A DNA stretch of 64,000 nucleotides from a virus (lineage: Duplodnaviria; Caudoviricetes), in IMG/VR virus record IMGVR_UViG_3300028048_000060, positions 90,737 to 154,736 of that record. One strand, 5' to 3'. The number at the start of each line of letters is the position of its first letter. Positions within the stretch are counted from its first letter, which is position 1. The notes under the pieces are model-generated. The model saw only the letters and a program-made list of their open reading frames with translations. It did not search any database and had not been told where the DNA came from. Both the position numbers and the translations under genes were made by a program. Shown in pieces: positions 59,980 through 64,000 of this stretch.

Positions 59980-62900
59980 ATGAAGATTCTTTTATCCTCA
60001 GATATCCACATTGGTGACTATAAAACTTACAATCCTGAACCTAATTTCAGACTTAATCAGTTCTTAAAGCTAAAGCAATTCATAGAAGACTTAGTTACTT
60101 CTAAGAACATAGACGAATTTTGGATAGCAGGAGACCTTCTTCAGGTTGCACAGAGCACTCCTCCTGTTATGAACGTAGTTAAGACTTTTTTGAGTGATAT
60201 ATCTAAGAAATGTCCTATTAGAATGATTTTAGGAAACCATGATGTGATTGTTCGTTCTGACAAAACAGATATCTCAGAATACAACAACTACACTTTGGTG
60301 TCTTTACTCGACTTAATTCCTAATGTCTTTATATACAACAATGACTTAGTCAAAATCGGTTCTAAGACTGTTTACTTCCATTCCTGGAATCCATCTAACA
60401 CCATTCAGAACAGAAGTAAAGATGCTGACTACTTAGTGTGTCATGGAGATGTCCACTCAAGTCTGAGTCCATTTGCTCCTGAATTTATCGACACCACTGG
60501 GTACAAAAAGGTCTTTGCAGGACATATCCATATCTTTAAGGAGATAAAGAATATTGTTTCCTTAGGAGTTCCTTTAATGCACAGTTTCAGTGACAACCCT
60601 GATATAGGTGTTTGTATCTTAGACACTGAAGATGACTCAATTGAAAGGGTTTCTACTAAGGGACTGTTCTTAGAATTTAAGTATACTAAGACTGAAAGCG
60701 AACTTTTAGAAGGAAACATAACAGGAACTGAGAACCCTGTTGTCGTAAGATTAGACCCTAAAGTTCAGAACTCTGAGAAAGTAGACATCTCAAAAATCTC
60801 TATTAGCCCTGAAGAGATGTTAAAGGAATTTTCCAAGAACCTCACAAAAGACTCTTTGAAGATTCTGAACACTGTGGTGTCTAAAGTTTTTGAGAATAAC
60901 TTAGTTCCTGACCTTAGGGTTAAATTTAAGACCTTAAAAGCACAAAACTTCTTATCTATAAGAGACATAGATTTTAATTTTGACAACTTTAATGGACTCA
61001 CTGTCATCAAAGGAGATATTGGTTCAGGAAAGTCTACTTTGTTTAATCTCTTAGAGTTTATGTTATTTGGAAGACTTCCTGGATACGCAAAGAATGACTT
61101 TAGTTCAGTGTTCAAAGGAAAGTTCAAAGGAACCTTAGAGTTAGAATATAAAGGAATAAACTATGTAATTACCAGAACACTGAGTTCCTTAGAATATACC
61201 AAGAACAGTATTCCTCAGGAGTCAAACAGAAAAACAGACTTACAGAAGCAACTGGAAGAAGATTTAGTTTTTCTTAGGTTCTTTAATATAATCTACATAA
61301 AACAAACTTCAACAGGGATTTTCTCTGATATGTCAGATACTTCAAGAGTGAGTTTCCTTAGTAACTTAATAGGTCTTAATACTATCAAGAACTGGACATC
61401 TTTACTTGACAATGAAGTGGAAAACCTCAAAGATTCGTTAAAGGAAAAGGAAGAACAAAGAACAGTCTTAGACACAAAGAAACAGGTCTTAGAAGTATTC
61501 AATGAACAGAATAAAGATATCGTTTTAAGAGACAAGGAAGAAACTGAGTCTAAGATAGAAGAACTGAATAATAATATCAATAGTCTTAACTTAATCAAAG
61601 AACAGAACAACTCTAAGATAACAGACATTAAGGTTGAGTTGACTAAGCTGAGCACAGATTTTAATCTTAATTTAAGCAAGACAGAAAAATTAAATTCTAT
61701 TGTTTCTAATATAAAGACATTAAAAGAAGAAATTAAAGAAAAAGAACTTTATAAGGAACAGTTAGAACAAAATGTAAAAGATTTAGATGTTCCTGTCCTT
61801 AATGAAGAATCTCCTGAATTAGATAATCAAAAAATCCAGGAGCTGGAAACATTGATAAAATGCACACAGTCTCAGATAAACTCAAAGACTGTTTCTCTAG
61901 GATTAGCAAAGGAGAAGTTAGACTCACTTTTAAATCATCCTGAAGTCTGCCCTCAGTGTGGTCAGAAATGGTGTGTAAAAGACACAAAAATAAAGACTGT
62001 CTTAGAAGAAAAGATAAAGACTTTAGAAGACTCTATAAACTCCTTAGAGTCTGAGAAGAACATCTACTTAGTAAGTAAGCAAAATGTATACCATTCTTTT
62101 AACTCTAAGATGGAACTGTTTAAATCCCAAAAGGAAAAATACAACACTAAACTTAAGGAATACAATCAAAACTTAGAAACTATAGAAAAAATTAAAACAA
62201 TAGAGTCTTATATAGAAAATAATAAAAATAAAATCAATAATCTAAAACAAGACTTAAATGAACTTAAAGATGACTCTTCATTGAAGAAATTCCTGAAAGT
62301 CCAGGATGATATGTTTGTATTAGACCAAAAGACACAAAAGACTGAGATGTTAGAACTCATTAAAGAGGCAAATGAACTCAAGGATAAGAACAGTTCTTTA
62401 GACTCTGAGATAAAAGATATCTCACACAGTGTCCTTGAACTCACAATGGAACTTGGGAGAATAGACTCTGATAATGCGACATACTTCAAAGTTCAGGATA
62501 ATCTTAAAAATATAGAAGAATATAATAATGAATTATATAAAATAAATAAGGAATTAGATAAAACTAATAATATGATACAGGAATTGTCCAAGTTTAATTC
62601 TAAGGTCCTAAGTGACAAAGGTCTTCTGGTAGCATCTTTGTTACAAAAAGTAGCTAAGTATCTTAACACAGACGAATCTCTAAAAGTTGAGACCACACAG
62701 GAACTTCAGAATGGAAGCATAAGACCTACACTGAACATTAAGTTATTTGTAAAGGCATATAACAAGTATGTCGACTACAGTATGCTTTCAGGAGGACAAA
62801 GACTGTTAGCTGACTTAAAGTTCCTTAAGGGAATTACTCAGACCTTAGGTTCTGTAAGCATATTGTTTTTAGATGAAACATTTAAGTTCTTTAGTTCTGA

Positions 62901-63045
62901 AACTGTTATAGAAGGAATAGAGATTATAAAGTCTTTAAATGTAGATAAGTCATTCCTTATCTTACATGGAAGTGACTCAGAGTGCTTCTCAGATAAGACT
63001 ATAAGAGTAACCTTAGGAGAAAATGGTTCTAAATATGTTTATTAA
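59980..63045 (+). CDS. fused recombination nuclease gp47-gp46 (Mre11/SbcD-Rad50/SbcC)
   Basis: DIH, GD, GNHD and GHIH phosphoesterase motifs, then NFLS, GSGKS, CPQC hook, LSGGQ and FLDE in one ORF. Confidence 0.9.
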   Translation: MKILLSSDIHIGDYKTYNPEPNFRLNQFLKLKQFIEDLVTSKNIDEFWIAGDLLQVAQSTPPVMNVVKTFLSDISKKCPIRMILGNHDVIVRSDKTDISEYNNYTLVSLLDLIPNVFIYNNDLVKIGSKTVYFHSWNPSNTIQNRSKDADYLVCHGDVHSSLSPFAPEFIDTTGYKKVFAGHIHIFKEIKNIVSLGVPLMHSFSDNPDIGVCILDTEDDSIERVSTKGLFLEFKYTKTESELLEGNITGTENPVVVRLDPKVQNSEKVDISKISISPEEMLKEFSKNLTKDSLKILNTVVSKVFENNLVPDLRVKFKTLKAQNFLSIRDIDFNFDNFNGLTVIKGDIGSGKSTLFNLLEFMLFGRLPGYAKNDFSSVFKGKFKGTLELEYKGINYVITRTLSSLEYTKNSIPQESNRKTDLQKQLEEDLVFLRFFNIIYIKQTSTGIFSDMSDTSRVSFLSNLIGLNTIKNWTSLLDNEVENLKDSLKEKEEQRTVLDTKKQVLEVFNEQNKDIVLRDKEETESKIEELNNNINSLNLIKEQNNSKITDIKVELTKLSTDFNLNLSKTEKLNSIVSNIKTLKEEIKEKELYKEQLEQNVKDLDVPVLNEESPELDNQKIQELETLIKCTQSQINSKTVSLGLAKEKLDSLLNHPEVCPQCGQKWCVKDTKIKTVLEEKIKTLEDSINSLESEKNIYLVSKQNVYHSFNSKMELFKSQKEKYNTKLKEYNQNLETIEKIKTIESYIENNKNKINNLKQDLNELKDDSSLKKFLKVQDDMFVLDQKTQKTEMLELIKEANELKDKNSSLDSEIKDISHSVLELTMELGRIDSDNATYFKVQDNLKNIEEYNNELYKINKELDKTNNMIQELSKFNSKVLSDKGLLVASLLQKVAKYLNTDESLKVETTQELQNGSIRPTLNIKLFVKAYNKYVDYSMLSGGQRLLADLKFLKGITQTLGSVSILFLDETFKFFSSETVIEGIEIIKSLNVDKSFLILHGSDSECFSDKTIRVTLGENGSKYVY

Positions 63046-63051
63046 AAATAC

Positions 63052-63262
63052 TTGATTTAATAAATCAAATCCTTTATAATAATAAACATAAATGAGAGAC
63101 AAATTAAAAGTTTAAAGGTCTCAAAAAGAAAAAAATGCTTGATTTTAAAATTTAAATCATTTATAATATATTAAAAGAAAGCATTTAAAGGTTCTTTAAA
63201 AATTTAAAAAATTTAAAAAATCTCAAAAAGTTCTTGATTTTATGAATTAAATCATTTATAAT
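63052..63262 (+). promoter_or_regulatory. three tandem sigma70 promoters for the tRNA cluster
   Basis: TTGATT-17-TATAAT at 63052-63080, 63139-63167 and 63234-63262. Confidence 0.85.
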
Positions 63263-63387
63263 AATAGAGAGCTTAAAGGAGAGGACGATGGTGATGAGTC
63301 CTTAAATAATTCACCACAATGCTTTAAAATGTAGTCTTAACCTCCTTACAACCAAACAAATCAAAAGAGACTACATTTTAAAGCAAA

Positions 63388-63463
63388 GGAAAGTTAGCCA
63401 AATGGTTAAGGCACTGGATTGCAAATCCAAGATTTATAGGTTCGAATCCTATACTTTCCTCCA
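63388..63463 (+). tRNA. tRNA-Cys(GCA)
   Basis: Cloverleaf; anticodon loop TTGCAAA; GGTTCGAATCC; encoded CCA. Confidence 0.9.
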
Positions 63464-63471
63464 AGATTAAA

Positions 63472-63546
63472 GCGGGTATAGTTCAATGGTTAGAACGCTG
63501 TCCTTCCAAGTCAGATATGAGAGTTCGATTCTCTTTATCCGCTCCA
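63472..63546 (+). tRNA. tRNA-Gly(TCC)
   Basis: GCGGGTA acceptor; loop CTTCCAA; GTTCGATTC; CCA. Confidence 0.88.
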
Positions 63547-63554
63547 AGATTAAA

Positions 63555-63630
63555 TGGGATATAGCCAAGTTGGTAAGGCATCAGATTTTGATTCTGACAT
63601 GCGGTGGATCGTGCCCACCTATCCCAGCCA
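63555..63630 (+). tRNA. tRNA-Gln(TTG)
   Basis: TGGGATA/TATCCCA acceptor; loop TTTTGAT; atypical T-loop ATCGTGC; CCA. Confidence 0.85.
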
Positions 63631-63812
63631 AATAAATAAATGGAAATAAATGGAAATGAGTGGATGACTTAATGATTAGGTCTACACTCGATAGTGATGG
63701 ATGACTTCGGTCTACATCCAGGTCTGATTTGATGCGTCGAGTCAGACTTTAAACTAAGCGTGGCTAAGTCACTGTTTAAGACCTATATGGACTTAATCAA
63801 ACTTAGTTCACC

Positions 63813-63960
63813 AAAAGGACTTTAGAAACATCTTAGATGACTAAAGCAAGTTAGGATGACTTATGCAAGTTAGGATGACTAAAGCAAGTTAGGATGACTA
63901 AAGCAAGTTAGGATGACTTATGCATAGTAGCGAGTATCTAAGATGTTTCTAAAGTCTTTT
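63813..63960 (+). ncRNA. candidate structured RNA: 21-bp closing stem enclosing 4.7 copies of a 19-nt repeat
   Basis: 63818-63838 is perfectly complementary to 63936-63956; repeat GATGACT(A/T)A(A/T)GCAAGTTAG runs from 63836 to 63924. Confidence 0.6.
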
Positions 63961-63966
63961 AAAAAT

Positions 63967-64000
63967 GGGTTGTTAGCTCAATTGGTTAGTTAGCGATGAT
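63967..64000 (+). tRNA. tRNA 5' part (truncated by the window end)
   Basis: GGGTTGT-TAGCTCAATTGGTTAG acceptor strand and D-arm. Confidence 0.6.

Follow-up and report, generated by a model that had tools for sequence, protein, structure and literature searches.

Here, we describe an element in the early tRNA operon of a rumen phage. It is probably transcribed into a structured RNA, a member of an uncatalogued family that is confined to these phages, and has been remodeled by amplification and deletion. The element lies near the end of the window, i.e., the whole stretch of DNA analyzed here, which comprises the last 64 kb of a virus contig of 154,736 bp (G+C content, 33.5%). We suggest that a group of T4-like rumen phages keeps an ncRNA gene between tRNA-Gln and tRNA-Lys in this operon and that the constant part of the RNA is a 22-26-bp helix joining its two ends, with an irregular rod of ~115-140 nt on top in most relatives. 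In the lineage of the window, the rod was deleted, and 19 nt from its 5' base, present once in the relative L023, were amplified to five units, each junction between which can fold into a hairpin of 4-5 bp that has AGGAU as its loop. The RNA would be co-transcribed with the tRNAs from three early promoters and released by the RNase P cut at the 5' end of tRNA-Lys together with nucleases acting on the 5' side of the RNA, and its long perfect duplex would be a likely target of RNase III. The amplified hairpins would most plausibly offer an RNA-binding protein several sites for docking, or act as its decoy, with CsrA as one candidate protein. A docking or decoy function of these hairpins for any protein is a tentative proposal that is more likely wrong than right; the complete statement, i.e., a rearranged copy of an ncRNA gene with co-transcription, processing, and multi-site docking or decoy function, seems to us evenly poised between right and wrong.

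The phage is a distant T4-like myovirus of the rumen. Its T4-like markers include a fused Mre11-Rad50 nuclease as well as a sheath completion protein of the gp15 type, which share only 36-47% identity with the proteins of the nearest cultured phages. The contig is linear (IMG/VR class) and ~68% complete as estimated by CheckV, and the locus is present in 15 DNA sequencing runs, the labels of which name bovine, sheep, rumen, or gut metagenomes. The closest cultured relatives of two of the phage proteins belong to Vibrio, Cobetia, and Yersinia phages, the hosts of which are Gammaproteobacteria; this is a weak hint as to the host, and a scan of genome contigs for the host returned a sole match, archaeal and distant. 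The tRNA synteny of the window is absent from the cultured phages with which it was compared. The operon has the following features.

63052-80, 63139-67, and 63234-62, + strand: three tandem early-type promoters, TTGATT-17-TATAAT, with identical hexamers, upstream of the tRNA operon
63320-63385, + strand: leader hairpin with a perfect 18-19-bp stem (z = -4.9), its 3' end 2 nt short of tRNA-Cys
63388-63630, + strand: tRNA-Cys(GCA), tRNA-Gly(UCC), and tRNA-Gln(UUG) (ARAGORN; 59-68 bits with the Rfam tRNA model)
63658-63689 and 63696-63718, + strand: twin hairpins HP1 and HP2, from the alignment of relatives
63721-63748, + strand: HP3, a 12-bp hairpin with a UGCG loop, from the alignment
63753-63807, + strand: HP4, a closing stem around two small hairpins (three-way junction), with 100% of cells paired in six sequences
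63967-64000, + strand: 5' part of tRNA-Lys(UUU), ending at the contig end, by comparison with the intact gene in relatives

Judged from their sequences, the three tandem promoters are strong and early-type and would drive the tRNA operon. They belong to a repeated unit of ~90 bp that is also retained in the relatives L002 and L004, and AATAAACATAAATG lies directly 3' of TATAAT. No terminator-like site was found within 62500-64000. The stem of the leader hairpin is perfect in relatives as well, with compensatory changes at three positions (L018, L021, and L023). Its loop contains ACCUCCUUA, which we take to be the 16S rRNA 3'-end sequence (anti-Shine-Dalgarno); the motif is mostly retained in relatives, and upstream of the hairpin, within 63288-63385, a mini-ORF of 5 codons (63288-63305) is accompanied by AAGGAGAGG, a strong Shine-Dalgarno sequence.

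The spacer between the tRNAs varies in several respects. Directly 3' of tRNA-Gln, the 10-nt tandem repeat AAATAAATGG is present in 2.4 copies (63634-63657), and 14 or 20 nt of this stretch are missing in contigs from the RNA libraries of two studies. L004 (13660-13790), L014, and L021 have an extra module of ~110 nt between tRNA-Gln and HP1, with long-range CUCCC...GGGAG pairing; the window has none. In L002 (13735-14250), HP3 is interrupted by a 128-aa ORF together with a 5' fragment resembling tRNA-Lys, and the 3' half of HP3 is duplicated, representing another rearrangement in the same spacer. The tRNA-Lys gene is intact in L004 (14125-14203) and L002 (14573-14649). In L001, an assembly identical to the window across the region, a 240-aa DUF559-like (endonuclease-like) ORF that reads through the 3' half of the tRNA interrupts the gene behind its first 34 nt, precisely where the window contig ends (L001, 7767-8540 and 8975-9013). 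The insert is flanked by an 11-nt direct repeat, TAAGATTAAAA, and leaves too little space for a group I ribozyme core; the 3' end of the tRNA is found once more 450 nt beyond.

The element itself occupies the interval between HP4 and tRNA-Lys.

63814-63838, + strand: 5' arm of the terminal helix, conserved in 8/8 variants
63833-63924, + strand: array of five 19-nt units in the phase UUAGGAUGACUAAAGCAAG, with the spacer variants AAA/UAU
63848-62, 63868-80, 63887-99, and 63905-19, + strand: junction hairpins, with GGA at 63854-56, 63873-75, 63892-94, and 63911-13
63923-63931, + strand: CAUAGUAGC, a remnant of the 3' end of the relatives' core (deletion joint), where L004, L002, and L023 read ...UUAUCCAUAGUAGC...
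63936-63960, + strand: 3' arm of the terminal helix, complementary to the 5' arm

A previous reading of the window, made from the sequence only, had recognized a 21-bp stem, and the arms 63818-63838 and 63936-63956 are indeed perfectly complementary. An inverted-repeat search extended them to 63814-63838/63936-63960 (25 nt, 96%, one G.U) and ranked this stem first among the inverted repeats of the 64-kb window. The 19-nt period of the enclosed repeat stands as previously described, and its copy number is to be revised from 4.7 to 4.4 (Tandem Repeats Finder, 93% matches, 63836-63918). In the phase UUAGGAUGACUAAAGCAAG, unit one lacks one G, and the last unit is cut at the deletion joint. The four AGUU-AGGAU-GACU junction hairpins proposed earlier can be formed, with loops at 63853-57, 63872-76, 63891-95, and 63910-14. 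Folding of 63810-63962 as RNA gave -56.1 kcal/mol (z = -8.6 versus shuffles). The placement of the element between tRNAs, downstream of three promoters, was likewise correctly described; the tRNAs are tRNA-Gln and the broken tRNA-Lys, and the promoters are early-type. No ORF of at least 40 aa overlaps the element, and the period of 19 is not divisible by 3. The window sequence is also present in the ENA assembly L001 and the JGI contig L009, and a diverged copy in L014; because these copies are independent, the element is not an assembly artefact.

Related contigs with the same layout were reached via homologues of the neighboring nuclease gene, and L009 and L014 were added by a metagenome scan with the stem arm. 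Eight of the 10 loci returned by the scan with an 18-nt arm were chance matches and were discarded; one unrelated contig (L016, 926-1309) has seven 61-bp tandem repeats that contain the 18-mer of the arm by chance. Altogether, eight distinct variants of the element are present in related rumen or gut phages, i.e., the window and seven others, all on the + strand between tRNA-Gln and tRNA-Lys, and the terminal helix is common to all of them, directly before tRNA-Lys. The helix encloses an interior of 97 to ~200 nt that differs among the variants.

L004, L018/19/20, L021, and L023: one GGAUGAC, then a core of ~115-140 nt
L022: GGAUGAC absent, then the core
L002/L003: 3.8 units and the core
Window/L001/L009 and L014: five units, with the core reduced to CAUAGUAGC

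Based on RNAalifold with five variants, the core folds into an irregular rod with 59 pairs, and compensatory changes are present at six of them. In L023, UUAGGAUGACUAAAGCAAG occurs once and is immediately followed by the core, and we take this arrangement as the single-copy state of the unit. Comparison with these relatives indicates that the window element is a derived form that arose by amplification of the unit and deletion of the core. The sequence-only reading had pointed to copy-number variation and covariation in related phages as informative, and both were found: the copy number runs from 1 (L023) through ~4 (L002) to five (window and L014), and one compensatory double change is present. 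The array of L014 has a 38-nt super-period, and the window array is without 38-nt periodicity.

In Rfam 15 scans of the window end, L001, L002, and L004, only tRNAs scored above threshold, and neither ROOL nor GOLLD was reported for the element; weak miRNA and snoRNA matches in these scans were hairpin-shaped and probably due to chance and were set aside. Blastn against 50,697 phage records, including T4, gave tRNA matches only, or none. IMG/VR scans with the repeat, an arm of the stem, or a block of the core returned nothing related; the 72 matches to a 17-mer and the single core-block match were unrelated sequences. As far as can be judged from these comparisons of sequence, this is an uncatalogued RNA element, known only from this phage group, that is amplified and core-deleted in the window lineage.

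Several observations favor that the element acts as + strand RNA. In the adjacent hairpins HP1 to HP4, the 44 drawn pairs are standard in 264/264 cells across six sequences, compared with 23-40% paired in slid controls; the structure was drawn from the same sequences, and the figure of 100% is therefore biased upward. Two of these pairs are compensatory and six vary by wobble-compatible changes only, and because G.U pairs correspond to A.C mismatches on the other strand, such changes make sense only as + strand RNA. HP1 and HP2 share a design consisting of an outer stem, an internal loop with 5' RAY and 3' UA, a 3-bp stem, and a UUCG-type loop; in HP1 of the window, an 11-nt loop replaces UUCG. 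In HP2, two pairs are altered on both sides (A-U/G-C and A-U/U-A/G-C), and in HP3 there is one-sided variation in four pairs, all of which remain G.U or Watson-Crick, with further C-G changes in L002. Of five substitutions seen in the terminal helix, four yield G.U or A-U and one (in L002) yields C.A, a pattern that is compatible with pairing and not significant. The comparisons establish the anatomy of the element, the conservation of the helix, the copy series, the deletion, the covariation in the neighboring hairpins, and one compensatory double change in the junction hairpins. The array is covered by contigs from the RNA libraries of four studies, which documents its presence in these libraries rather than its transcription, DNA carry-over being possible. 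The higher depth of RNA-library contigs over the tRNAs and the array than over the neighboring gene was left unused because such depth cannot rank expression, and bins without coverage were likewise given no weight. Two motif assignments were also rejected. GGAUGAC does not qualify as a K-turn or box C, as covariation there backs a plain 3-bp Watson-Crick stem, and TGCTTTA, a MotA-box look-alike on the minus strand of each unit, has the wrong spacing to any -10-like hexamer.

The arrangement of terminal inverted repeats around tandem repeats could instead point to an element that acts as DNA, i.e., an origin or a partition site with iterons, a MITE-like mobile element bounded by terminal inverted repeats of 21 bp, or the scar of homing-endonuclease repair. 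The endonuclease-like ORF that the window lineage carries as an insertion 40 bp downstream and the perfect palindromes at the apex of the relatives' core would fit such an element. However, MITEs occur in many dispersed copies, whereas a single copy and no second one was found in the 154.7-kb contig; the position in the tRNA operon is fixed in all relatives, a target-site duplication was not seen at the arms, and G.U-type and compensatory changes suit + strand RNA. We therefore consider an element acting at the DNA level very unlikely.

A stronger alternative accepts that the locus acts as RNA and assigns a role to its helix only: the duplex would serve RNase III in cutting the tRNA precursor into segments, similarly to the leader stem, and the array would be functionless slippage. 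Nothing but the helix is shared by 8/8 variants. An RNase III helix is an uninterrupted duplex spanning some two helical turns, and that of the window has 21 bp without a mismatch, or 25 bp when one G.U is included. The interior tolerates deletion, amplification, and the insertion of a 22-nt palindrome, as reflected in its range of lengths, and the leader stem, as a second long duplex of the operon, is kept perfect by compensatory changes. RNase III participates in T4 tRNA maturation (PMC4810235). Moreover, the adjacent tRNA-Lys is broken in the window lineage; core loss and tRNA-Lys disruption in the same lineage suggest that this part of the operon may be decaying, in which case the repeats could be neutral slippage. 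By contrast, the relatives' core has conserved blocks and its six covarying pairs, arguing that the interior is not neutral in general. Within the array, the double change in L014 preserves the junction hairpins, and the AGGAU loop and GUUAGGAUGAC are invariant in 11/11 junction copies from three arrays. On balance, we regard a processing stem with a neutral interior as possible and the less probable account of the element. In the structured RNA reading that we prefer, the helix would still resemble known RNase III helices, such as the stems of rRNA operons, the sites in T7 early mRNA, and the T4 tRNA precursor, in that an uninterrupted duplex of at least 20 bp lies in a polycistronic precursor of stable RNAs, with a second such stem in the operon leader. 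It differs from them in that the enclosed RNA is neither rRNA nor tRNA, and cleavage of the element is only predicted.

The proposed function of the array depends on the junction hairpins. The stem of AGUU[AGGAU]GACU reaches 5 bp in UAU-type units, and the same bases can engage in two competing pairings, UUAG[GAUGA]CUAA and, within a unit, GACU[AAAGCA]AGUU. Compared with the window, L014 has, within one and the same junction hairpin, an A-to-G change in the 5' strand and a U-to-C change in the 3' strand; this double change is present twice after the 38-nt duplication, and the compensatory support for the junction hairpins accordingly derives from a single event that was later duplicated. As a result, GGUU...GACC alternates with AGUU...GACU in L014, the four junction hairpins stay Watson-Crick, and both rival pairings break. 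For two random substitutions in a double unit, the chance of this outcome is 0.5%, or 0.9% if only transitions are considered, and it rises about threefold if an outcome of this type is counted in whichever of the three registers it occurs. On the other hand, ViennaRNA predicts a rod of unit-with-unit pairing at -56.1 kcal/mol versus -39.7 kcal/mol for four local hairpins, a gap of 16 kcal/mol, and the pair probability of the local hairpins in the predicted ensemble is 0.01-0.12 in the window and 0.27-0.60 in L014. The junction hairpins are thus plausible, with some evolutionary support, and they are not the predicted ground state.

The sequence-only reading suggested that the element may be a decoy RNA, possibly a sponge for CsrA/RsmA. 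Two parts of this suggestion stand: the element belongs to the tRNA transcription unit and acts at the RNA level, and the compensatory change in L014 speaks for its hairpins. The suggestion also depended on conserved repeats, and here it is not supported, as the GGA repeats are a recent amplification and five of the eight variants have 0-1 GGAUGAC. Similarly, the GGA motifs noted upstream of the element are present in the window and are not conserved in relatives, in which these positions read GAAUGAC or GGACGUC (GAA in most) and lie within stems or internal loops.

CsrA is common in Gammaproteobacteria, the group infected by the phages that encode the nearest cultured relatives of the two proteins mentioned above. 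A phage-encoded sponge with four GGA-loop hairpins that titrates host CsrA early in infection would agree with the GGA motifs within 5-nt loops of 4-5-bp hairpins, with the strong early promoters of the operon, and with the covariation of the hairpins in L014. CsrA selects the SELEX consensus RUACARGGAUGU with invariant ACA, its ligand hairpins are mostly ≤4 bp, and the CsrA dimer bridges sites 10-63 nt apart (PMC7652899); the AGGAUG of the loops corresponds to the RGGAUG core of this consensus, and the 19-nt spacing falls inside the bridging range (PMC7652899). However, the invariant ACA is missing, there are only four GGA loops, and the hairpins are minor in the predicted ensemble. The match to the CsrB model (RF00018) is weak, with 16.2 bits (E = 0.08) against a gathering score of 71, and no other Csr/Rsm family was reported. 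Most relatives have 0-1 GGAUGAC, and the upstream GGAs are unconserved. Csr/Rsm RNAs are not known to carry a 25-bp terminal duplex or to lack their own terminator, and the element differs from them in both respects. No gene for CsrA, L7Ae, Ro/TROVE, RNase III, or a dsRBD protein that might hint at a partner was found in the phage contig, which covers an estimated 68% of the genome. Considering these points, we judge a CsrA/RsmA sponge to be unlikely. With CsrB, RsmY, and RsmZ, the element would share, provided that its putative junction hairpins form, repeated short GGA-loop hairpins, and it has a spacing suited to a dimer and a variable number of repeats; it differs from them in its score below the Rfam threshold, its four sites, the lack of its own terminator, relatives without conserved GGA, and an array inside a 25-bp duplex in a tRNA operon.

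The repeats also bring to mind a ToxI-like mimic of a type III antitoxin that neutralizes the toxin of a host abortive-infection system, an idea raised in passing before. The element is a tandem RNA repeat of a phage with copy numbers that differ between relatives, and the 38-nt super-period of L014 would be in line with such a mimic. Known type III antitoxin repeats are 34-45 nt long and lie next to a ToxN-type toxin gene; by contrast, the unit here is 19 nt, no toxin gene is adjacent (tRNA-Lys and the DUF559-like ORF lie downstream), the array is inside a long helix, and no terminator follows it. Hence, we consider an antitoxin mimic almost certainly wrong.

Among known phage RNAs, the structured RNA that we propose is best compared with T4 RNA C and RNA D (species 1 and 2), two small RNAs of unknown role from the T4 tRNA region (PMC3014915, PMC9697503). 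Like the element, rnaC and rnaD are small ncRNAs in a tRNA cluster on the tRNA strand (PMC3014915, PMC9697503; T4 annotation). They are released from tRNA transcripts, whereas release of the window element is only predicted. They have no sequence similarity to the element (blastn, 50,697 phage records), and the folds differ; rnaC has a tRNA-like T-arm at its 3' side and neither a long terminal duplex nor a tandem repeat. In addition, rnaC and rnaD are classed as late RNAs (PMC9697503), while the operon in the window has early-type promoters. ROOL and GOLLD, the former first seen in rumen metagenomes, are structured RNAs of phages and prophages that often lie beside tRNA islands (PMC12286853), and they resemble the element in being structured phage RNAs near tRNAs with unknown function (PMC12286853). 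However, they are 500-800 nt or longer, ornate, and multimeric, whereas the element is 150-250 nt and rod-like.

Small RNAs of phage tRNA clusters have been without a function since T4 species 1 and 2 were described. The variants described here form a natural graded series (core only, core with four units, and five units without the core) that lends itself directly to tests of binding and fitness. Should a host regulator bind to the amplified hairpins, the locus would show how a phage can build a protein sponge by slippage in only a few steps; otherwise, it would still represent an uncatalogued RNA family with two long duplexes maintained by covariation, which probably guide the processing of the tRNA precursor. 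We speculate further that the element could be a chassis RNA in which a constant terminal duplex carries interchangeable payloads, the payload in the window being a multivalent GGA-hairpin decoy that titrates a GGA-binding regulator, e.g., CsrA, early in infection. While we regard this as improbable, it would, if true, be to our knowledge the first phage-encoded Csr-type sponge, and its stages with 1, 4, and 5 copies would still be present in nature.

Finally, each lineage has its own perfect DNA palindrome at the apex of the core rod (approximate coordinates).

L004, 14030-14045: GACCGGTC
L018, 7855-7870: GCATGC
L022, 7835-7850: GTCGAC
L023, 7935-7975 (approximate): 22 nt, spacer-less

These apex palindromes could be a site of kissing-loop dimerization or a product of template switching.
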